Source of the DNA: Roseibacillus sp.
Lineage (GTDB): Bacteria; Verrucomicrobiota; Verrucomicrobiia; Verrucomicrobiales; Akkermansiaceae
Reading direction: 5' to 3'
DNA length: 64,000 bases
Assembly: GCA_051251855.1 (NCBI GenBank)
Contig: JBPOGI010000001.1
Coordinates: forward strand, 1,600,001 to 1,664,000
Shown here: positions 28,035-36,767 of the stretch, in pieces
Layout of the letters: every line of letters begins with the position of its first letter
Position numbering within the stretch: position 1 is the first letter of the stretch
Made by a program: the position numbers and the translations under genes
Notes under the pieces: generated by a model
Told to the model about the DNA's origin: nothing
Seen by the model: the letters and a program-made list of their open reading frames with translations, nothing else
Database searches by the model: none

Positions 28035-28122
28035 GGAGGGGTGGCAGAGTGGTCGAATGCACTGGTCTTGAAAACCAGCGTAGGGAAACCTACCGTGGGT
28101 TCGAATCCCACCCCCTCCGCCA
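28035..28122 (+). tRNA. tRNA-Ser(TGA)
   Basis: GGAGGGGTGGCAGAGTGGTCGAATGCACTGGTCTTGAAAACCAGCGTAGGGAAACCTACCGTGGGTTCGAATCCCACCCCCTCCGCCA; 88 nt, long variable arm. Confidence 0.97.
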
Positions 28123-28284
28123 GCTTCCTTTTTTCCCCGCAATCAGGAGCCTCCGATAACGGTTCCCAGTTGCCGTTCTCTTTCCAAGCTCAACAACAGC
28201 ATCCCTCGTCTTTTCGCGGAAAATCACTGTTTCCAAACTGAGAAATCCAGCTTTCATTCCAAGATGGGCTAGTTCACGGAAAAC

Positions 28285-28333
28285 TTTAAAGTGGCCATAA
28301 GTCTGTTTTCTGGGCACTTATGGCCACTTATAG
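28285..28333. repeat. Left palindromic end of the ATPase cassette
   Basis: AAGTGGCCATAAGT-CTGTTTTCTGGGC-ACTTATGGCCACTT (perfect 14-bp arms, 28289-28329); the 49-bp unit ends 3 nt before the ATG. Confidence 0.9.
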
Positions 28334-28336
28334 AAA

Positions 28337-29761
28337 ATGAAACTGACGGGTCGGGAACAGGAAATCAAGAAGCTCAACCTGCTGCTGAAGAGCAAGGAAG
28401 CTGAATTCCTAGCCCTTTATGGACGACGACGGATCGGTAAGACTTTTCTCATTGAGCAACACTTCAAGAAAGAGCTTTGCTTCCAATTGAACGGCCAGAA
28501 GGACGGCACTCTGAAGGAACAGCTCGGAAATTTTCATAGCACGCTCAGTGACCGGAGTCGGAAGAAGCGGAACTGCCCGGGGTCTTGGCAGGAAGCCTTT
28601 CAGCAACTCACCGCCCACCTCAAAACACTGCGGGGAAAGGGCAAGTATGTCGTCTTCCTCGATGAGTTGCCCTGGTTGGCGAGCCCACGTTCGCGCTTCC
28701 TGCAGGCTCTCGATTACTTTTGGAACAGCTTTCTCAGCAAAGACCCGCGCTTCATTCTCGTCATCTGCGGTTCGGCCGCCTCGTGGATGATTGCCAAGGT
28801 CATTGATCACAAAGGCGGTCTTCACAATCGAGTGACCGCTCGCATCAAACTCAATCCCTTCACCCTGGCGGAAAGTGCTCAATTTCTGCGTTCACGCGGG
28901 GTCAAACTCACTCCCTACGATCAGCTCACACTGGCGATGGTGATGGGCGGAGTCCCCCACTATCTCAAGGAAGTCCAAGCCGGCCAATCGGCCGTGCAGG
29001 CTATTGATGCCAGCTGCTTTCATCCTTCCGGCCTTCTCCACGACGAGTTCAATCGCCTCTACACCTCCCTCTTTGATAGCTCGGACCGTCATGTCGAACT
29101 GGTGCGTGAACTGGCGAAGCATCCGCAAGGATTGACCCGCAAGGACCTCACCAGCGCCTACAAGTCAGGCGGGCGACTGACGCACACTCTCACCGAACTC
29201 GAAGAGGCAGGTTTCATCAGCATTCAGAATCCTTTTGAGAAAACCAACCGCGACGCCCTCTACCGCTTGGCCGACGAGTTCTCCCTCTTCTTTCTCAAGT
29301 GGATGGATGGAAAGCGAAGCACTGGGAGCTTTGCCAAAAAATTCAAAACACCTGCTTGGCATGCCTGGAGTGGTTACGCTCTTGAGTCCATCGCCCACAA
29401 GCACATCGCACATATCAAGACCGAGATCGGAATCGCGCAAATCGAGACCGAACATTGTTGCTGGGTTCATCGTGCTAACAAGACTTGGCCGCAAGGAGCA
29501 CAAGTGGATCTCCTCATCGACCGCGCGGATCGCAGCATCAACTTAGTCGAAATCAAATTCTCGCAAGGCCCCTTCACCATCAAGAAGAGCTATGCCGCCG
29601 AGCTCCGTCGCAAAGTGCAGGTCTTCCGCGAAGTGACCGGCACTCCCAAAAACGTCTTCCTGACCTTCCTCACCACCAACGGGCTCACCGAAAACGCGTA
29701 CGCGAGCGAGCTGGTAGACACCGCCATCACCACTGAATCACTCTTCAAGGAAATCCTATAA
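28337..29761 (+). CDS. AAA ATPase (ATPase_2-like) with wHTH and C-terminal PD-(D/E)XK-like domain
   Basis: Walker A YGRRRIGKT, Walker B VVFLDE, ICGS, GGVPHYL, LTELEEAGFI, QVDLLIDRAD..LVEIKF. Confidence 0.88.
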   Translation: MKLTGREQEIKKLNLLLKSKEAEFLALYGRRRIGKTFLIEQHFKKELCFQLNGQKDGTLKEQLGNFHSTLSDRSRKKRNCPGSWQEAFQQLTAHLKTLRGKGKYVVFLDELPWLASPRSRFLQALDYFWNSFLSKDPRFILVICGSAASWMIAKVIDHKGGLHNRVTARIKLNPFTLAESAQFLRSRGVKLTPYDQLTLAMVMGGVPHYLKEVQAGQSAVQAIDASCFHPSGLLHDEFNRLYTSLFDSSDRHVELVRELAKHPQGLTRKDLTSAYKSGGRLTHTLTELEEAGFISIQNPFEKTNRDALYRLADEFSLFFLKWMDGKRSTGSFAKKFKTPAWHAWSGYALESIAHKHIAHIKTEIGIAQIETEHCCWVHRANKTWPQGAQVDLLIDRADRSINLVEIKFSQGPFTIKKSYAAELRRKVQVFREVTGTPKNVFLTFLTTNGLTENAYASELVDTAITTESLFKEIL

Positions 29762-29804
29762 GTGGCCATAAGTCCTCAAAAAACAGACTTATGGCCACTT
29801 ATAG
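29756..29804. repeat. Right palindromic end of the ATPase cassette
   Basis: CTATAAGTGGCCATAAGTC-CTCAAAAAACA-GACTTATGGCCACTTATAG (perfect 19-bp arms); contains the stop codon TAA 29759-29761. Confidence 0.9.
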
Positions 29805-30034
29805 CGAAAACCCTTCTCCGGATTTTTAGGAACAGAGTCCTTCAATCGCCTCAGACTCACCCTGAATTCAGGCTGAAAAAACAAGGATGAGAGAGACCGC
29901 GAAAACAGCGAAATGAGCGAAAAAGAATCAGGCCGAAATTGGACTTCGTTCTTTGAGCAAGTTTCGCCCCTCCCCCGCGCTCCAAACGATTCCTCTCTGT
30001 CTCGTTGTCGTCGGACTTCTTTTCCTCACATCCT

Positions 30035-30118
30035 CCAGACGGAGCGCGGATCTTTAGTCCGCCCCACTGCCATGATGACGGATCGTTGGGGCAGGCTAAA
30101 GACCCGCGTTCCATCAGG
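30035..30118. repeat. Inverted REP pair (REPIN-like)
   Basis: CCAGACGGAGCGCGGATCTTTAGTCCGCCCC and GGGGCAGGCTAAAGACCCGCGTTCCATCAGG form an imperfect inverted repeat. Confidence 0.75.
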
Positions 30119-30262
30119 TCGACCTAGACTGTAGCCATAGTGGTAAGGCATGAGCCTCAAGATTTGGTCTCGAGCGCTTTCATCTCTTCCAAACTGATCC
30201 GGCGATCACTCACCTTCTTTTTCGTAAATCTTCTAGGAGTACCATCAGGGCGATGACTTACG

Positions 30263-31441
30263 CTATTCCTCTTCTTGGATGGTCGCCAAGACCTCAGAAA
30301 TACGACTCTCAGGCACGTCCCATTCTCGGAGGGCGCTGGCCACCATTCCGGGTTGAGAAAACCCGCGAAGAGCACTCAACTCTTCGATTCTCGCTTCGTT
30401 GTCCGGGAGGTCGTTGAGTAATTCTTGAGACATCATAAAACCTGTTGGGGGCCGGCTAGAGAGGGCTGCGAGGCGGAGCTGTCGTGCGGGTTCCTCTTCC
30501 ATCAGGGGAAGAATCTTCCGTGTCCTAGGGCTGTTGTTCACGAAGTCGGAATTCTCGACAAGCTTATCGAATTGGTTACGAGAGAGTGCTGATAGACGCT
30601 CTGCCATTACGGTATGGCTTTCGATGCTACCAATTTTCTTTTCAAGACCGTAAAGAGCCATCGAGAAGCTCACTCTTTTTCCGTCCAAAGAACGGTCAAG
30701 GGCATAGTCGATAGCAGCATCAGGATCTCTTTCAACCCATTCTTTGAGCGGAGAAGTGGAGATTGCGGCTCTCGGCACTTCATCTCTCATGCCATCGAGA
30801 AGTCGCTCAAAATCGAAGTCTTCGGGGTAATCCATCCCCACCCCTTGACCCTGATTGGTATCATTTTTTGGAAGGCGTTTCATGGTGGCTAGTAAAGCTT
30901 CCGCTCCTTCCGCAGCCGATTGAAGGAAGGCCTTTCGAACCGTTCCGGCGAGTGGGCTAATGAAGGCTCCCACAGAATGCTTTTCGCATTCACAATAGAG
31001 CTCAAAGGCGAGCTCGGGTTCGCTGCGAGCGAGAACCGAGGCCACGGAGCACAAGGCCACTTCTTGCTTCTTGCCTTTCTGGCTGCGGACCCAGGCAATA
31101 CAGCCCTCTTGGTCTCTTTTGAGCCACTCTCCGAAAAGCCGTTGCAGAAGACGGACATCATCACGCCCCATCCCACCCCACATTCCGCCCATCGCTTCGT
31201 TCACAAGAAACGGAAGTTCATCGTCGTCCGCCTCTTTTGCGACCGAGGGGCCTTCACTCTCCAAACGGCTGATGAGCTGGGTCAGCCTACTGGCGGACTT
31301 GGCTTCGCTCGTATTGGATTTCATTCCCTGCGCACTCTTGGTGGGAGCGGCCTTCACGAGGGGAGTTTTCTCAGGTTTAACGAGCCAGCCAAGAGTGAAA
31401 CCAATGAGCAAAGTTCCAAAAGCAATCACACTAGTCTTCAT
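30263..31441 (-). CDS. Hypothetical membrane-anchored helical-repeat protein
   Basis: N-terminal TM (IGFTLGWL); WLKRDQEGCIAW and WVERDPDAAIDY repeats. Confidence 0.75.
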   Translation of the reverse strand: MKTSVIAFGTLLIGFTLGWLVKPEKTPLVKAAPTKSAQGMKSNTSEAKSASRLTQLISRLESEGPSVAKEADDDELPFLVNEAMGGMWGGMGRDDVRLLQRLFGEWLKRDQEGCIAWVRSQKGKKQEVALCSVASVLARSEPELAFELYCECEKHSVGAFISPLAGTVRKAFLQSAAEGAEALLATMKRLPKNDTNQGQGVGMDYPEDFDFERLLDGMRDEVPRAAISTSPLKEWVERDPDAAIDYALDRSLDGKRVSFSMALYGLEKKIGSIESHTVMAERLSALSRNQFDKLVENSDFVNNSPRTRKILPLMEEEPARQLRLAALSSRPPTGFMMSQELLNDLPDNEARIEELSALRGFSQPGMVASALREWDVPESRISEVLATIQEEE

Positions 31442-31585
31442 TCCTTCTAGAGCGTTCTCTAGTGGCCTTTTTTTGTCGATATCTCTTTTAGAGAGAAAAT
31501 TCTTTTGACCAGAACCCTAACCCTTACCCTTACCTCCGCCTGCTGGACTGGAGACTCCGCTTGGCAAGCCACCGGGAAAGGATAG

Positions 31586-31630
31586 TCCAGACGGAGCGCG
31601 GTTCTTCAGTCCGCCCCACTGCCTCATGAC
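31586..31630 (+). repeat. REP-like copy, direct repeat of 30034-30079
   Basis: TCCAGACGGAGCGCGGTTCTTCAGTCCGCCCCACTGCC vs TCCAGACGGAGCGCGGATCTTTAGTCCGCCCCACTGCC (2 mismatches in 38). Confidence 0.8.
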
Positions 31631-31665
31631 AGGAGCAATGGAGGCAGCCCTCGCATCTAAAAATT

Positions 31666-32349
31666 TTAGCAACACGCACGCATCATGGGGCAATCTTTGC
31701 TCCCTTGCTGGCCTGAGCTGCGATAATTCTGCAATAAGCGTCGAGACTCTTTGGCCAGCATGCGGCGCACCTCGCGGCGGGCTCCTTTTTCGCGAGGGAT
31801 GGTCATGTGATCATAAGCGGTCGTTTGATGGCGCATCCAGGCGATCACTGCCGATTCGGCGCGCTGCTCGATGGGGATTCGCTGCGTGCGAGCCACGGTG
31901 CCACTCCCGACCGGAACGGCGTGCTCGGCCACCGCTTTTGCCATCTTGTTTGCCAGCTCCAGATGTTCCTGATGGAAAGCGAGAAACTGAAACACCGCCT
32001 GTTCAAACTCCTCCGCATAGGCCTCCTCCGCCTTCGCGCGGCGTGAGCGACCGGCATCGAGCTTCTTGAGATATTTGGGATCGTTTTTCTCTGCTTCGCG
32101 CTCTGCTTTCAGTCGCTCAATTCGATCCGCGGGCGCCAGAATCCCGTGTGAGAATTTCTTGCGCCGCTTGAACTCCACCACGGTCCAACTCGGCCCCTCC
32201 ATTTTCACCCTCCGGCTCAAAGCGGCATCGCCCGGTGGCAAGCGCGCCCAATCAGTAGGAATCTTCATCGGCTCCCCCTCCATACTGGACACGAAGCCCT
32301 CCTTCTCGCCCAAGCGAACCTCAATCGCCTCTTCATTACTCTTACTCAT
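31666..32349 (-). CDS. DUF2293 domain-containing protein
   Basis: LPPGDAALSRRVK, PVGSGTVART, AVIAWMRHQTTAYD. Start ATG 32349. Confidence 0.8.
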   Translation of the reverse strand: MSKSNEEAIEVRLGEKEGFVSSMEGEPMKIPTDWARLPPGDAALSRRVKMEGPSWTVVEFKRRKKFSHGILAPADRIERLKAEREAEKNDPKYLKKLDAGRSRRAKAEEAYAEEFEQAVFQFLAFHQEHLELANKMAKAVAEHAVPVGSGTVARTQRIPIEQRAESAVIAWMRHQTTAYDHMTIPREKGARREVRRMLAKESRRLLQNYRSSGQQGSKDCPMMRACC

Positions 32350-32465
32350 CGCAGACTCCAACAGGAACCTCCCCTACCGCCGAGCGCAAGGCCAGCCTTC
32401 AACATCCTGTCATCCCAAGGAAAAAGGGTCAAAAAAAGCAAAGATCGAGACTCAACACCCTGATT

Positions 32466-32494
32466 TTGACATTCTGTTTGGGAGAATGTAGTAT
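32466..32494 (+). promoter_or_regulatory. Sigma70 promoter with embedded operator palindrome for the TA-like operon
   Basis: TTGACA-N17-TAGTAT; ACATTCT-N7-AGAATGT (32469-32489) spans the spacer. Confidence 0.75.
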
Positions 32495-32504
32495 TCGCCT
32501 TGTT

Positions 32505-32783
32505 ATGGCCGAAGAGTCGCTCGATATTCCGATTTCAGAACTGCCTTTTGAGGCGGGGCAAGGGTTCTCGGCGACTGTTTCCGAGGATGGCATTGCTCAC
32601 ATCACGGTCTTGCTAGCGAAAACCCAGGAACGAACTGAAAGCGCTCACTCTCAAGAGGCAGCCACCGCGTTTCTGAGAAAATGGGGAGGCTCTCTTGCGA
32701 GTTCTGATTCCTTTCGGAAAGACCTCCACTCTGATGATCCTAGAATGCTTCACTACATCGAAAAATTCGGTTTGGACGCATGA
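32505..32783 (+). CDS. Putative antitoxin (hypothetical, 92 aa)
   Basis: Small acidic ORF overlapping the PIN gene by ATGA; start moved to ATG 32505. Confidence 0.65.
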   Translation: MAEESLDIPISELPFEAGQGFSATVSEDGIAHITVLLAKTQERTESAHSQEAATAFLRKWGGSLASSDSFRKDLHSDDPRMLHYIEKFGLDA

Positions 32784-33199
32784 GGCTCTTTCTCGATACC
32801 AACATCCTGCTCGATGTCGCTCAAGGACGGGAATCGTTCTATGAGGCTTCTTCCAAAATTGTACAGTTCGCTCATCGAGACGAGAACGAGGCCTTTCTCT
32901 CGTGGCATTCGATGGCGACTCTTTTCTACATTCTCAGCAAACCGTGGGGCGAATCGAAAACAAGAGAATACCTAACCGATATTCTTTCTTGGGCTGAATT
33001 GGCCCCAACGAGTCAAGGATACGCGCTCAAAGCGCTTGCGATGGACGGCAAAGACTTCGAGGACGATCTCCAAAGTCAATGCGCGGTGGCGGCGAACTGC
33101 GATTACATCATTACCCGCAACACGAAGGACTTTGCCAGTTCCTCCATCGGGGCTCTCACTCCAAGCGACTTTTGGGAGCGATTTGGCTCGGAGGAGTAA
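32780..33199 (+). CDS. PIN-domain protein (VapC-like putative toxin)
   Basis: LFLDTNILLD, DFEDDLQ, IITRNTKDF. Confidence 0.88.
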   Translation: MRLFLDTNILLDVAQGRESFYEASSKIVQFAHRDENEAFLSWHSMATLFYILSKPWGESKTREYLTDILSWAELAPTSQGYALKALAMDGKDFEDDLQSQCAVAANCDYIITRNTKDFASSSIGALTPSDFWERFGSEE

Positions 33200-33307
33200 T
33201 GGGGTCGCCTCTGGTCTTCATCCTCACACTCGAACGTCTTCCACCAAAGGCACGGTTTCCTCGTTACAAGAGAGGAAGAATGGGACATTTTTGACCAAAG
33301 AAGTCCC

Positions 33308-35008
33308 ATGAATGACACCGCGCGAACCTCTCCCTTCTCCGACTACACCACACCCCAGCCAGATCTCGAAGAGTGTCGCGGACGATACGAGGTCTTCCAT
33401 CAGAGACTAAATGACGCCTCTTCCTTGGATGACTGCTTGAAAGTGATTGCCGATTGGGACGCGCTGCTGATGACCATTAAGGAGTGGAGCAGTCTGACTG
33501 AGATTCGCTTCAATCAGGACACTCAGAACAAGGCCTTCATCAAAGAGAAAGAGGAACTCGATGAGAGCTATTCGAAGTTCGTGGATCTCGAAACCACCTT
33601 CAAACAGGCGCTGTTAGACTCCCCGTTTCGCAGTGAACTGGCTGCGGCAACTTCCCCTCACCTCTTTGCGCTCTGGGAGTGCAATACGCGCAGCTTTTCT
33701 CCCGCAATCGAAGCGGATGTTTCTGCAGAGGCCAAGCTCGCTTCAGAATACACTTCGCTGACCGCGGGGGCGGAGATTGAATTCCGAGGCGAGACCTTCA
33801 CCCTCTCGGAGCTCGACAAATTTGCCGACGATTCTGACCGAACGATTCGCGAGGAAGCTTGTCGAGCGAGTTCGCAATGGTATGCCGACAACGCACCGGA
33901 CCTCGATCGCATCTACCATGGCATGGTCGAGCTTCGCCACGGAATGGCTCTCAAGCTGGGCTACGACAACTTCGTGGAAATGGGCTACCAGAGAATGAGA
34001 CGCATTGGTTACGGGTCAGAAGACGTGAACGTCTTTCGGGAAGAAGTGCAACGGGAAGTGGTTCCTTTCGTCACCGAGATGGCCAAGAAACAGGCGCAAA
34101 CCCTTGGGATTGAGAGCCTGAAGTTCTGGGACAATGCAGTTTTCTCGCCCCATGGAAACCCCGCTCCGCGGGGAGATCACGATTGGATGATCGAGCGGGC
34201 AACGGAGATGTTCTCAGCCATGGGACATGGTCTTCCCGAGTTCTTCGAAGAGATGAAATCTCGCGGCGTGATGGACCTGAAATCACGGAAAGGAAAAGCA
34301 GGAGGAGGGTTTTGCGACTACCTCCCCCTCTGCGAATTCCCCTTTATTTTCGCCAACTTCAACGGCACCCGAGCCGACGTGGATGTCTTCACCCACGAAA
34401 TGGGTCATGCCTTTCAGGCCTACTCAGGCCGCAAGCAAGCGATGAGCGATCTGGTGTGGCCGACGACGGAAGCCTGTGAAATCCATTCCATGGCCTTGGA
34501 GTTCCTGACTTGGCCCTCCATGGACTTGTTTTATGGCGAAGAGGCTGCCGACGAGCTTCGCAGAATTCATCTCACGGGCTATCTCATGTTTCTGCCCTAT
34601 GGAGTGGCGGTCGATCACTTTCAACATCTCGTCTACGAGCAACCAGACGCCACCCCCGAACGCAATGCGATGTGGCAGGAAATGGAGCAGCGCTACCTCC
34701 CCTGGTATCAATATGACGACCTGCCCAGCGAGAGTTCCGGACGTCTCTGGCAAGCCAAGCAGCACATTTACGGAGCTCCTTTTTACTACATCGACTACTG
34801 CTTGGCACAGACGGGCGCGATGCAGTTTTGGACCAAATCGCGCAGTGATCGGGAGGGAACGCTCCAGGCCTATACCGACCTTTGCCGTCTAGGCGGAAGC
34901 AGGAATTATAGCGATTTGTTAGAGTTTGCAGGTCTCAAGTCACCGTTTCAAAAGGGCTGTTTGAAGGACGTGATGGCAGATGCAAAAACGTTTCTGAACG
35001 CCTCATAA
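33308..35008 (+). CDS. M3 family oligoendopeptidase
   Basis: GKAGGGFC, FIFANFNG, HEMGH, EIHS, PFYYIDY. Confidence 0.92.
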   Translation: MNDTARTSPFSDYTTPQPDLEECRGRYEVFHQRLNDASSLDDCLKVIADWDALLMTIKEWSSLTEIRFNQDTQNKAFIKEKEELDESYSKFVDLETTFKQALLDSPFRSELAAATSPHLFALWECNTRSFSPAIEADVSAEAKLASEYTSLTAGAEIEFRGETFTLSELDKFADDSDRTIREEACRASSQWYADNAPDLDRIYHGMVELRHGMALKLGYDNFVEMGYQRMRRIGYGSEDVNVFREEVQREVVPFVTEMAKKQAQTLGIESLKFWDNAVFSPHGNPAPRGDHDWMIERATEMFSAMGHGLPEFFEEMKSRGVMDLKSRKGKAGGGFCDYLPLCEFPFIFANFNGTRADVDVFTHEMGHAFQAYSGRKQAMSDLVWPTTEACEIHSMALEFLTWPSMDLFYGEEAADELRRIHLTGYLMFLPYGVAVDHFQHLVYEQPDATPERNAMWQEMEQRYLPWYQYDDLPSESSGRLWQAKQHIYGAPFYYIDYCLAQTGAMQFWTKSRSDREGTLQAYTDLCRLGGSRNYSDLLEFAGLKSPFQKGCLKDVMADAKTFLNAS

Positions 35009-35011
35009 ACA

Positions 35012-35893
35012 ATGGACCGCCGACATCCCATTTCAGAATTCAAGGCTGAGCGATTCAGAGACTTCTTTGGAAGTCAGACAAGCCCTCTTGAAACCCAGTT
35101 GCTAAGCGGCGGAGCCTGCAACAGCAACTACTCGGTGCGCACACCCAAGGGCGAACGCTTCGTGTGCCGAATCCACAACCGAGGCAATCCTCAGGCGGAA
35201 AAAGCCATCGTTGCCCTTCTCGATGAGGCCATCCTTACCCCCGAATATCTGTGGGCTGGTGACGGAGTTTCGGTGATGTCTTTTGTGGAAGGCACTCATT
35301 TTCGCCCCACCAAAAAATTGGTCCGCGAAGCAGGCCAGATGATAGCGAGACTGAAGACCATCACCTTCCAAAGCTCTGGGCAAATCCTCCCCAGCGGTGA
35401 CGTCATCCCCTTTCCAGGCTGGCCCACTTTCAAGACCGGTATTCTGGGGCAGTTGGCCAAGGATTCAGTGCGGGACTATCTGGGAAAAGAAACGCTCGTT
35501 GCGGTGGAGAACCTCGTGAAGCAGCATCAGGACCTCTTTCACTCCTTCGATAGCTGCCACAATCTCGTGCATGGCGATTTCAGGCCCGATAACATTCTCG
35601 TCTCCGACGATTCCATCACCGGAATTTTGGATTGGGAGTTCGCTCACTCGGGGTGCTCCTGCATGGATATCGGAAACCTGCTGCGCCACCTTCCCTCAGA
35701 ATGGGAGCAAGACCTCGCTTGGGGACTGCAAAGCGAAGGCTTCGAATTACCCGGTAATTGGAGATTCCGTTCCCTCCTCATCGACTTGGTAAGCCATCTG
35801 GAGTTTCTCACTTCAAACCACTCAGATACTTTCAAAAGGAGCTGTGTCGCGAGAATCACTGCCCTGATCAAACAAAGCGCCGCGCTGGCCTGA
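35012..35893 (+). CDS. Aminoglycoside phosphotransferase-family kinase
   Basis: GGACNSNY, HGDFRPDNIL, ILDWE. Confidence 0.85.
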   Translation: MDRRHPISEFKAERFRDFFGSQTSPLETQLLSGGACNSNYSVRTPKGERFVCRIHNRGNPQAEKAIVALLDEAILTPEYLWAGDGVSVMSFVEGTHFRPTKKLVREAGQMIARLKTITFQSSGQILPSGDVIPFPGWPTFKTGILGQLAKDSVRDYLGKETLVAVENLVKQHQDLFHSFDSCHNLVHGDFRPDNILVSDDSITGILDWEFAHSGCSCMDIGNLLRHLPSEWEQDLAWGLQSEGFELPGNWRFRSLLIDLVSHLEFLTSNHSDTFKRSCVARITALIKQSAALA

Positions 35894-35981
35894 TTTCCTT
35901 TCCCCAGCCTTAATCGCTCGGCCCCCTCTCTACTTCATTTTTTTCTGGAAGCGCGCTCTTCTCTCGGCAACACCTTTTCTC

Positions 35982-36767
35982 GTGACCGAGTCCTTCCTTT
36001 CGCGCTTTTCTGGCATTGCCCGTCTTTATGGTCGGGACGCCTTGGAGCGTTTTCAGCAATCACATGTTACCATCGTTGGGGTCGGGGGCGTCGGTTGTTG
36101 GGTCGCGGAGGCACTCGCTCGCTCGGGAGTCGGCAAGCTCACTCTCATCGACCTCGATGACTTATGCGTCACGAATACGAATCGTCAGCTTCACGCCACC
36201 AGCGAGACCATTGGGCAGTCCAAAGCCCAGGTGATGGCCGACCGCCTGCGCAGCATCAACCCCGAGATTGAGGTCGTGATGCGGCAAGAATTTTTCAGCG
36301 AAAGCAGCGCCGAAAGTATTCTAACAGACTCGGGAGATTTTCTGGTGGACGCCATTGACTCCATTAAAGCGAAGTGCCTCCTTCTAGCTCTTTGTCGGGA
36401 GAAAGAGATTCCGGTCATCACCTCAGGAGGCGCGGGTGGACGCATTCGAACCGACAAAATCGAAATCACCGATCTCTCGCGCACTCATGGCTGCGCCCTT
36501 CTCTTGCAAGTGAGGAAGAATCTGCGATCGGACTACCGCTTTCCCCGTGGCGGAAAGAAGGCCAAGAAGTTTGGGATTCAAGCGGTCTTCTCTTCCGAGC
36601 AACCCCGCTATCCCACTGCGGATGGTTGTGTGAGCATCGAGCGCCCCGATGACGTTGACCCCGGCATTCGGTGTGATGCCGGCTATGGCACTTCCACTCC
36701 AATTATCGGCAGCTTCGGACTCGCGATTGCAGGAGCCATTCTCGAACAGCTGGCAGAGGAGAAATAG
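35982..36767 (+). CDS. tcdA: tRNA threonylcarbamoyladenosine dehydratase (ThiF family)
   Basis: RFSGIARLYG, GVGGVG, TNTNRQ, DAID, GGAGG, VFSSE. Confidence 0.88.
   Translation: MTESFLSRFSGIARLYGRDALERFQQSHVTIVGVGGVGCWVAEALARSGVGKLTLIDLDDLCVTNTNRQLHATSETIGQSKAQVMADRLRSINPEIEVVMRQEFFSESSAESILTDSGDFLVDAIDSIKAKCLLLALCREKEIPVITSGGAGGRIRTDKIEITDLSRTHGCALLLQVRKNLRSDYRFPRGGKKAKKFGIQAVFSSEQPRYPTADGCVSIERPDDVDPGIRCDAGYGTSTPIIGSFGLAIAGAILEQLAEEK

Follow-up and report, generated by a model that had tools for sequence, protein, structure and literature searches.

Within the window, by which we mean the whole analysed stretch of 64,000 nucleotides, one gene coding for a PDC-S27-type protein, an anti-phage candidate judging from its sequence, is bracketed by two 49-bp palindromes. 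We lean towards regarding it as a horizontally exchanged and self-regulated single-gene cassette of a defence candidate with its operator duplicated at both ends, and most likely the bracketing palindromes are copies of the predicted cognate site of the encoded protein itself. Observed directly were the anatomy of the unit, the uniqueness of its sites and their co-variation with the protein across the family, a homology limited to the unit and its presence as a single copy.

The open reading frame (28337..29761, forward strand) codes for 474 amino acids. The left palindrome (28285..28333) consists of two perfect 14-mer arms (28289-28302 and 28316-28329) around a 13-nt spacer with a T run (28303-28315) and ends 3 nt before the ATG (28337); it is a probable operator and perhaps also a promoter. 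The right palindrome (29756..29804), which we propose as a second binding site, has perfect arms of 18–19 nt and a spacer with an A run, and the TAA stop codon (29759-29761) lies inside of it. Both palindromes, the distance of 3 nt to the ATG and the stop codon within the right copy had been described in an earlier note on this DNA, and its coordinates and sequences were confirmed, as was the statement that the two are inverted copies. The left palindrome agrees with the reverse complement of the right one at 43 of 49 positions versus 34 of 49 when both are read directly, and thus the spacer is inverted between them. This inverted orientation of the spacer, also pointed out earlier, is not conserved among both-ended relatives. 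Directly outside of the palindromes GGAAAAC (28278-28284) and CGAAAAC (29805-29811) are indeed present. The former is included in the 12 nt TTCACGGAAAAC (28273..28284, forward strand), which are kept in the copy of the unit in the congeneric genome G004 and repeat the last codons of the gene, TTCAAGGAAATC at 29744-29755, with 10 of the 12 outer bases matching; a direct repeat (D3, 31 nt, 84%) starts at the same position 28273. The latter is included in a 14-nt tail (29805..29818, forward strand) that in G004 is the leader directly before the hsdM start. The whole cassette common to G004, made up of 12-nt remnant, left palindrome, open reading frame, right palindrome and tail, spans 28273..29818 on the forward strand.

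According to profile matches and a structure model the 474-aa protein is a predicted DNA-binding AAA+ ATPase of the archaeal-ATPase/Orc1-Cdc6/STAND kind carrying a winged helix and a PD-(D/E)XK-like domain, all encoded on the forward strand. Its ATPase part (residues 1-215, 28337-28981) matches Pfam ATPase_2 (PF01637) with an E-value of 3.8e-15 and 56.7 bits versus a cutoff of 33.2, and the Walker A motif G29-x4-GKT36 (28421-28444) and the Walker B motif D109-E110 (28661-28666) are invariant in 29 sequences. The match to the PADLOC profile PDC-S27 (PDLC04984) is full-length, with residues 2-470 on profile positions 3-473 of 474 (E 1.8e-179). Foldseek with the AF2 model (pLDDT 90.6) found archaeal ATPases (2qen and 2fna on top), DNA-bound Orc1/Cdc6 and NB-ARC proteins. 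Three helices (250-260, 268-274, 281-290) and a wing (strands 294-297 and 308-311) form the modelled winged helix at about residues 250-311 (29084-29269), for which the sequence gives a weak match to MarR-type regulators (E 0.5); truncated homologs are annotated as 'ArsR family regulator' by their sources, and PF12840 is found in some homologs. In the C-terminal PD-(D/E)XK-like domain at about residues 339-470 (29351-29746) the model contains helix 339-364, strands 371-378, 388-396 and 400-407, helix 417-434 and strand 439-446. A PD-(D/E)XK core would have the order alpha-beta-beta-beta-alpha-beta, with D on strand 2 and E-x-K on strand 3. D391, E405 and K407 (E405-x-K407) are invariant among the aligned homologs, and no Pfam nuclease family matched the 474-aa protein. 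A transposase family was not found either; Pfam, NCBIfam and PADLOC gave ATPase and PDC-S27 matches alone, and a match to TnsC (E 1.7e-5) is confined to the generic AAA+ core.

When up to 2 mismatches are allowed, the window contains the 14-mer half-site four times, with 0.20 occurrences expected by chance and none of 100 shuffles reaching four. Throughout the 4,958,744 bases of the Roseibacillus sp. source genome (G000) these four half-sites are the only ones at up to 1 mismatch (control hits: 0). With the half-site confined to the unit in this way, a genome-wide REP is rejected and the reservation of the earlier note on this point falls away. The same restriction to the unit's own ends is seen in G556, G557 and G558, three further genomes with both-ended units. 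In the 201 genomes of the order that were searched, perfect palindromes adjoin the gene or its remnants only and solo palindromes were not found; for this pattern search hits with 0–1 mismatches were used, as 2 mismatches gave noise with similar control counts. A second copy of the unit, a solo palindrome or a MITE-like copy was not found in G000, and the gene-less copies that the earlier note suggested looking for thus did not turn up in these searches.

We extended the analysis to a survey of 112 homologous loci, with the short fragment L133 excluded from every count, and to a protein tree from which 12 of the 112 were left out because of internal stops or short length (L042, L055, L077, L081, L084, L099, L112, L119, L121, L126, L127 and L129). 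Sites were found by palindrome and half-site searches with a minimum arm length of 12 nt in the script; L110, with an arm of 11 nt, was scored as both-ended by eye. An upstream palindrome is present in 90 of the 101 loci that are testable by having at least 120 nt of upstream flank, and windows scoring 10 or higher account for 86 of 97 real (89%) versus 64 of 1337 control windows (4.8%). Its architecture is a TATA..GCCAAA arm, a spacer of 8–29 nt (mostly 11–19 nt, often with an A/T run) and the inverted arm, with arm sequences that vary by locus and track the protein tree across phyla. Within the genes of the 90 loci no arm match was found, and the ±3-kb flanks of 66 loci from the genome collection contain a single exact arm match away from the two gene ends, which lies 1444 nt upstream in L102. 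The co-variation of palindrome and protein, for which the earlier note had proposed a collection of homologs, therefore exists. Because of it we take the palindrome as the family's own predicted site, and as it precedes the gene, is retained together with the protein and is near-absent elsewhere, the upstream copy is probably the operator. The co-variation also fits binding by the encoded winged-helix protein.

As single strands both palindromes are predicted to fold into strong hairpins (left -13.8 kcal/mol, z -5.25; right -19.6 kcal/mol, z -11.6). One could thus think of a role at the RNA level that is independent of the protein, with the right copy as terminator or 3'-end stabiliser and the left copy as insulator from upstream transcription. 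The position of the right copy at the stop codon, between convergent genes in G000, L060, L095, L110, L113 and L119, would agree with this, as would a copy in G437 that follows 11 nt after the hsdM stop. Such a role is nevertheless improbable, as no T run follows either hairpin, a scan for intrinsic terminators gave nothing at either palindrome and no Rfam family matched there, and since structure alone needs neither co-variation with a protein nor a GCCAAA-type arm nor an A/T-tract spacer.

A copy at the 3' end of the gene was found in 21 of 86 loci belonging to at least eight separate lineages. Of these copies 19 are clear, while L066 (2 mismatches per half-site, 219 nt downstream) and L102 (one half-site) are weak. 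The other 65 of the 86 loci carry the upstream palindrome only, an outcome that the earlier note had listed beforehand as one that would refute its reading. The both-ended arrangement nevertheless stands for the gene's own clade, where it is present in all ten complete units (G000, G004, L103, L104, L105/L106, L110, G394, G466, G481 and G487) at protein identities of 56–89%. Downstream copies score about the same as upstream copies and their arms are equally intact. The distance from the left palindrome to the ATG is mostly 3–15 nt (median 13) in both-ended loci versus a median of 46 nt in upstream-only loci. Spacers with a T run, an A run or neither amount to 41:22:33 upstream and 5:10:4 downstream, a bias that weakly fits a direction-sensitive role for the upstream copy only. 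Convergent downstream neighbours in the six loci named above led us to reject the right palindrome as the operator of the next gene as a general rule. A site is also located just before a methylase gene in G004, L104, L105/L106 and L112, and where hsdM follows, such an operator function is possible. Among decayed copies, G437, G439 and L112 retain the 3' end with the right palindrome and L108 retains the 5' end. The copy in G437 is internally deleted and reads palindrome, last 79 codons, palindrome, with both ends kept. Counting against an operator pair are the 65 loci that lack a downstream copy, and the decayed copies that retain the 3' end.

The right palindrome could also be a neutral scar left by a tandem duplication of operator and gene after loss of the second gene, functionless and kept similar by gene conversion that now and then copies the selected upstream site onto it. 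The flanks, which form direct repeats and in G000 take in the final 12 nt of the gene, point in this direction. We still consider a scar quite unlikely, since the right copy is retained in ten of ten complete units of the clade down to 56% identity with surrounding non-coding DNA that is unalignable, recurs in at least eight lineages and has arms as intact as those upstream.

For the duplicated operator, which we prefer, we infer binding by the protein, repression and a role of the right copy. Two protomers would bind head to head, one per arm, across the A/T-tract spacer. The left copy would serve as operator, and probably as promoter, in the autorepression of a potentially toxic nuclease, and the right copy, which overlaps the stop codon, would be a lineage-conserved duplicate acting as second binding site, maybe for cooperative looping over the 1.4-kb gene or for insulation from neighbouring transcription. 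The cassette would transfer as a unit and in relatives would have become embedded at the 5' end of hsdM by recombination-based insertion. What counts against this model is that a left palindrome 3–15 nt from the ATG in most both-ended loci leaves little room for an ordinary downstream promoter. A sigma-70 promoter scan gave nothing at either palindrome. Also, the direct repeat extends beyond the palindrome into the gene's 3' end, by 12 nt in G000 and by some 78 nt in L119, so that a pure second operator is not sufficient as an explanation.

In a blastn comparison of G000 with G004 the match is limited to 28277-29818 (85.1% over 1544 columns) with unrelated flanks, and between these unrelated loci the homology reaches no further than 8–12 nt past the left palindrome and 14 nt past the right one; in the genus comparison flanking core genes are 75–79% identical. 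On the nucleotide level the gene and both palindromes thus present themselves as a discrete unit that moves between genomes and loci. A homology break 8–14 nt from both palindromes is tighter than random recombination predicts, and this counts against our preferred reading. Within the class, close homologs were found in 3 of 401 genomes. G000, G004, G556, G557 and G558 each have a single copy of the unit, and the PDC-S27-type family is rare on plasmids (10 of 72,556 records) and phages (7 of 50,697 records). In G004 the unit belongs to a type I R-M locus with the order hsdR-hsdS-3 ORFs-unit-hsdM, and nucleotides 1-196 of hsdM are repeated at 88% in a repeat that ends 85 nt upstream of the unit. 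A similar repeat is found in G466, G487 and L104, so that in these four cases direct repeats of the hsdM 5' end of 100–345 nt surround the unit, which fits a recombination-based insertion. In G000, hsdM homology is missing and the palindromes are the only long flanking repeats. The earlier note had taken GAAAAC as a candidate target-site duplication. As GGAAAAC and CGAAAAC lie inside the segment shared with G004, where they are conserved at a different locus, they are part of the unit and this duplication is rejected. By eye no common short flanking repeat was seen at L103, L104, L105 and L110.

The G000 unit lies in about 7.85 kb of G000-specific mosaic DNA (28123..35975) that, according to genus synteny, extends from tRNA-Ser (anticodon tga; 28035..28122, forward strand; ARAGORN, Rfam tRNA 63.8 bits), its left border, to a ThiF-family gene. 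A Pfam scan of this segment revealed, besides the unit, a hypothetical 392-aa gene, DUF2293, a PIN toxin pair, peptidase M3 and an APH kinase, and no integrase or recombinase gene. A repeat of the tRNA 3' end was not found across the segment either, and a classical tRNA-island integration is therefore rejected. In G001, G003, G004 and G005 the ThiF-family gene follows about 14–40 nt after the tRNA. What these relatives lack is the whole 7.85-kb segment rather than the unit by itself, so that the empty site with a single GAAAAC after tRNA-Ser, as predicted earlier, was not recovered, and no unit-sized empty site was found in the genus relatives compared. A contig of a source-like sequencing run covers 28093-30900, and no inversion or excision joints at the unit were seen in contigs of this run, from which rare variants drop out. 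Two further metagenomes contain relatives of the gene with 90–97% identity as short pieces without the G000 flanks.

From all this the cassette does not behave as an insertion sequence. Of the mobile cassette put forward in the earlier note, the discrete unit at unrelated loci of two congeneric genomes stands, but the target duplication and a unit-sized empty site do not. A modified form of that idea, doubtful in our view but possible, is a self-mobilising or homing cassette, for which palindrome-bound dimers would cut just outside of the sites with the PD-(D/E)XK domain and ATP. The gene would be excised, or copied into a cut solo palindrome, and the palindrome-sized direct repeats would be the footprint, in which the site itself would have served as a long duplicated target. 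This would account for the tight borders, the repeats into the gene's 3' end, the recurrent both-ended origin in at least eight lineages and the embedding in defence operons. It would also agree with flanks in which the palindrome and a few adjoining bases are directly repeated, with the invariant D391, E405-x-K407 and Walker motifs and with the internally deleted copy in G437 that keeps both ends, and transposase-free R-M units with unique long inverted repeats are on record in the part of PMC2853133 that deals with them. Against it speak the single copy in each of the five genomes named above, the lack of solo palindromes in the 201 genomes of the order, the missing target-site duplication and unit-sized empty site, the lack of joints in contigs (which drop rare variants), and the one-ended state of 65 of 86 homologs together with the variable spacer orientation. 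The paired identical sites on either side of the gene might instead be used by a recombinase acting in trans and make the cassette invertible or excisable. This is very improbable: no recombinase or integrase gene was found in the 7.85-kb segment or among the scanned neighbours of the G004 unit, the site differs with each protein variant, a variation that one common host recombinase could not accommodate, and inversion joints are missing from the contigs, the latter being a weak argument.

In this locus and its relatives a presumed cognate palindromic site travels together with the gene across phyla and brackets it in some lineages, and the exchange of the unit between loci includes its embedding at the hsdM start, with a repeat of this start on either side. 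If the right copy is a second operator, the cassette would be a compact design that silences the nuclease wherever it lands. If the nuclease cuts its own sites, this would be a new route for the movement of defence genes.

Controller (C) proteins of type II R-M systems are small HTH proteins with palindromic C-box operators and without ATPase or nuclease domains. The unit resembles them in the palindromic operator before its own defence-linked gene and in the additional site before the methylase gene in the four loci mentioned above; to our knowledge C proteins do not have a second operator at the stop codon of their own gene. Orc1/Cdc6 initiators bind inverted origin-recognition boxes next to their own gene. 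They share with our protein the AAA+ and winged-helix fold and with our locus the inverted sites around an A/T-rich stretch beside the gene, but here the spacer has only 13 nt, a nuclease domain is present and there is no evidence for a replication function. With insertion sequences and MITEs the unit has in common terminal inverted repeats (43 of 49) that abut a single ORF and a patchy distribution, and it differs in having no transposase match, target duplication, multiple copies or gene-less copies. An integron gene cassette was rejected on account of two identical variant-specific sites per gene and no integrase among the scanned neighbours. Nobusato et al. (2000) reportedly described the insertion of R-M genes with a long target duplication. 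The position of the unit between direct repeats of the hsdM 5' end in G004, G466, G487 and L104 is similar to this, whereas the unit in G000 has neither hsdM homology nor a long repeat besides the palindromes.

Insertion of R-M genes with a long target duplication is also covered in part of PMC2853133. PDC-S27 appears in the relevant part of PMC12988326 as an ATPase fused to a PD-(D/E)XK domain, a candidate without experimental validation that is counted as one of the ten commonest defence systems of prokaryotes, and PADLOC candidates derive from a 'guilt by embedding' approach (10.1101/2024.01.29.577857). Our gene resembles this system in the full-length HMM match, the domain order and, in G004, the type I R-M locus that surrounds it. 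The main text of that preprint says nothing of palindromic sites, of their co-variation with the protein or of a both-ended arrangement, and palindrom*, inverted repeat, direct repeat and duplication have 0 occurrences there. Closest to the arrangement described here in their repeats are units treated in part of the work of Furuta, Abe and Kobayashi (2010, PMC2853133), R-M units with long unit-unique inverted repeats and no working transposase. As described in that part, they are likewise defence-type units with inverted repeats (26–65 bp there versus 49 bp here) that are absent elsewhere in the genome and without a linked transposase. An 8-bp target duplication, in two cases with an empty site, is given for them and neither was found here, whereas the repeats of our unit are both palindromic in themselves and co-vary with the predicted DNA-binding protein that it encodes.

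Re-examination of the 474-aa ATPase-wHTH-nuclease gene of the Roseibacillus sp. genome (G000) bore out how the earlier note had described its palindromes, their positions and the placement of start and stop codon. In the left palindrome (28285-28333), whose end lies 3 nt before the ATG at 28337, a 13-nt spacer separates two perfect arms of 14 nt; the right one (29756-29804) encloses the TAA stop and has perfect arms of 18-19 nt. Compared as inverted copies they are identical at 43/49 positions, read directly at 34/49. The window contains four instances of the 14-nt half-site (one palindrome arm), where 0.20 would be expected, a count reached in 0/100 shuffles. As the whole 4.96-Mb genome holds it at these four positions only, the palindrome is not a REP, an identity that could be ruled out. 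Both palindromes fold strongly as single strands (z-scores -5.25 for the left, -11.6 for the right), and an Rfam search at both found no family.

The encoded protein matches Pfam ATPase_2 and, over its full length, the PADLOC profile PDC-S27 (E 1.8e-179). According to the accessible part of the source this family is a 'phage defence candidate' that joins an ATPase to a PD-(D/E)XK domain, and such candidates come from a 'guilt by embedding' approach, validation being pending for most (PMC12988326). In an alignment of 29 homologues (50-100% identity) Walker A (G29..GKT36), Walker B (D109, E110), D391, E405 and K407 are invariant. The AlphaFold model (pLDDT 90.6) divides into an AAA+ core, a winged helix spanning roughly residues 250-311 and a C-terminal alpha-beta-beta-beta-alpha-beta unit, on which D391 and E405-x-K407 sit. 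Among PDB structures, Foldseek ranked the archaeal ATPases 2qen and 2fna, Orc1/Cdc6 (DNA complexes included), NB-ARC/STAND proteins and RuvB highest; by sequence, only TnsC matched in the PDB, through its generic AAA+ core (E 1.7e-5).

This is a very large family, with at least 7154 proteins at E 1e-10 or better among 8000 scored. We compiled 112 loci, namely 80 on genome contigs (35-48% identity, spread over many phyla), 30 usable ones from metagenome contigs (fragment L133 excluded) and those of G000 and the congeneric genome G004. A palindrome scoring at least 10 within 250 nt of the start was present in 90 of the 101 loci offering at least 120 nt upstream, and in a control this score was reached in 86/97 real upstream windows vs 64/1337 windows elsewhere in the same loci. 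The architecture is constant, a TATA....GCCAAA-type arm being followed by a spacer of 8-29 nt (mostly 11-19), frequently with an A/T run, and the inverted arm; tandem pairs are frequent, and the arm sequence varies between loci, tracking the protein tree. No half-site was found inside the genes of the 90 loci, and the 3-kb flanks on both sides of 66 loci held one exact match apart from those at the ends of the gene itself (L102, 1444 nt upstream). The upstream palindrome would thus look like the expected cognate operator of the encoded winged-helix protein. In a Pedobacter locus (L066) the family member is followed directly (+987) by a second, distant ATPase_2-like gene, placing paralogues side by side.

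The same half-sites recur at the 3' end in 21 of the 90 loci (20 found by script and L110 by eye, with L066 and L102 as weak cases), 65 are upstream-only and the remaining four have a downstream flank too short to score. Of the paired palindromes co-varying with the protein that the earlier note proposed to seek in homologues, the upstream member is widespread and the downstream one present in a minority of loci. The both-ended state appears in at least eight separate lineages in a tree of 100 of the proteins, from which the both-ended L055, L084, L119 and L121 are absent. Within the clade of the G000 gene (56-89% protein identity) every one of the ten complete units whose two flanks can be seen is both-ended (G000, G004, L103, L104, L105 (=L106), L110, G394, G466, G481, G487), and the right copy is also present in four further loci with an unscorable left end, three cut by one contig end (L107, L109, L111) and L112, which lacks the 5' part of the gene. 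The left palindrome ends at a median distance of 13 nt from the ATG in both-ended vs 46 nt in upstream-only loci. The inverted spacer orientation noted in G000 was seen by eye also in G004, L105, L118, L119 and L062, but it is no rule among relatives, as the spacers are direct in L103, L095, L055, L068 and L121; the ratio T-run:A-run:neither is 41:22:33 for upstream palindromes and 5:10:4 for downstream copies.

A role of the right copy as operator of the next gene was rejected as a general rule, because the gene that follows has convergent orientation in G000, L060, L095, L110, L113 and L119, although it could act in this way where the type I R-M gene hsdM follows. A canonical terminator was likewise rejected on sequence and terminator scan. 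The right copy is conserved across a clade whose surrounding non-coding DNA is unalignable, which together with its repeated origin argues for a function or a recurring mechanism. Most likely it represents a putative second binding site, which would serve in looping or insulation.

The main rival reading assigns the nuclease a role in self-mobilisation or homing. The G004 copy shows 89% protein and 85.1% nucleotide identity to that of G000, the homology being confined to 28277-29818 with unrelated flanks, and the two genomes share 75-79% identity in core genes adjacent to the G000 site. These values would fit a transfer of the unit after the two split, with unequal gene constraint as an alternative. 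Close homologues occur in 1/8 other genomes of the genus and in 3/401 of the class, G000 included. The unit is present once in G000, and in 201 genomes of the order palindromes with 0-1 mismatch lie solely beside the gene or its remnants (2-mismatch matches were as frequent as in the control); in three other genomes with both-ended units cognate half-sites (0-1 mismatch) are found at the unit's own ends only. The extra or gene-less MITE-like copies that the earlier note proposed to look for were not encountered in these searches, and the genomes examined give no sign of what would be IS-like proliferation.

Decayed copies do exist. In G481 the gene is broken with both palindromes retained, L112 lacks the first 104 codons and L108 the 3' end. 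G439 (L175, G439:C99, locus positions 1869-2118) keeps the last 70 codons and the right palindrome, and in G437 (L179, G437:C39, locus positions 2408-2725) a palindrome-bounded relic of about 320 bp directly after hsdM consists of the last 79 codons between two palindromes, the first fused 4 nt before codon 396. The G437 and G439 remnants are independent, and both retain the last 70-79 codons and the right palindrome. Many of the close homologues P0001-P0060 lie on assembly contigs of only 1.65-2.0 kb, about unit size, and the flanking palindromes may be points at which assemblies break.

In G000 the left palindrome is preceded by 12 nt (TTCACGGAAAAC) that duplicate the final codons of the gene in front of the right palindrome (TTCAAGGAAATC) with 10/12 bases identical and are part of direct repeat D3; the left GGAAAAC belongs to this remnant of the gene's 3' end. 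Such direct repeats take in about 78 nt of the gene's 3' end in L119 and about 25 nt in L055. For the outer 12 nt of ten units the mean match is 4.5 within vs 3.4 between loci (permutation p 0.0017), mainly due to G000. Since GGAAAAC and the right CGAAAAC are both kept in G004 at an unrelated locus, they are unit-borne, and the GAAAAC target-site duplication suggested previously falls away. Judged from sequence, the flanks are direct repeats and not a target duplication.

A ThiF-family gene follows tRNA-Ser after about 14-40 nt in four congeners (G001, G003, G004, G005) and stands at 35982 in G000, which therefore carries a specific segment of 7.85 kb (28123-35975) between both genes, with the unit at its left edge. 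Relatives lack the whole segment, so that the sole empty site found is segment-sized and not the one predicted for the unit alone. Neither an integrase nor an att-like repeat of the tRNA end was found in the segment. Homologues of its genes are scattered at other loci in congeners, its DUF2293 gene being 85% identical to G004:C2:319077-319809, and a small ORF overlapping a PIN_3-domain gene (32466-33199) resembles a toxin-antitoxin pair. An imperfect 32-nt inverted repeat (30034-30118), pieces of which occur in many contigs of G000 and congeners (query 2735-2815), looks like a genus-wide REP-like element unrelated to the unit's palindromes.

The G004 locus runs hsdR, hsdS, three ORFs, unit, hsdM, and hsdM starts 15 nt past the end of the segment shared with G000. 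A repeat of the first 196 nt of hsdM (88% identity) stops 85 nt short of the unit on its upstream side. In G466, G487 (two to three copies) and L104 the unit is likewise bordered by repeated hsdM 5' ends, and in G039 such repeats separate other small ORFs. Viewed together, L178 (G039:C43:44000-51500), L177 (G487:C70), L137 (G466:C37) and L010 (G004:C10) show the first 70-345 nt of hsdM two to three times upstream of the intact gene; the stretches between these copies hold small ORFs or the ATPase unit, like an array of embedded cassettes. No hsdM homology was found in G000, where all that remains is the 14-nt tail lying in front of hsdM in G004. The pattern is that of insertion with long target duplication, as described in the accessible part of PMC2853133; it would also arise by homologous integration of a circle carrying a piece of hsdM.

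Surrounding palindromes were not mentioned in the accessible literature on PDC-S27 or ATPase_2/DUF234 genes, which included a bioRxiv preprint by its main text. The closest published anatomical precedent for the unit, as far as the available part of that paper goes, are the RM units with unique long inverted repeats and no working transposase (PMC2853133). They differ in that 8-bp target duplications accompany them in both cases with a comparable empty site, whereas our unit lacks a target duplication.
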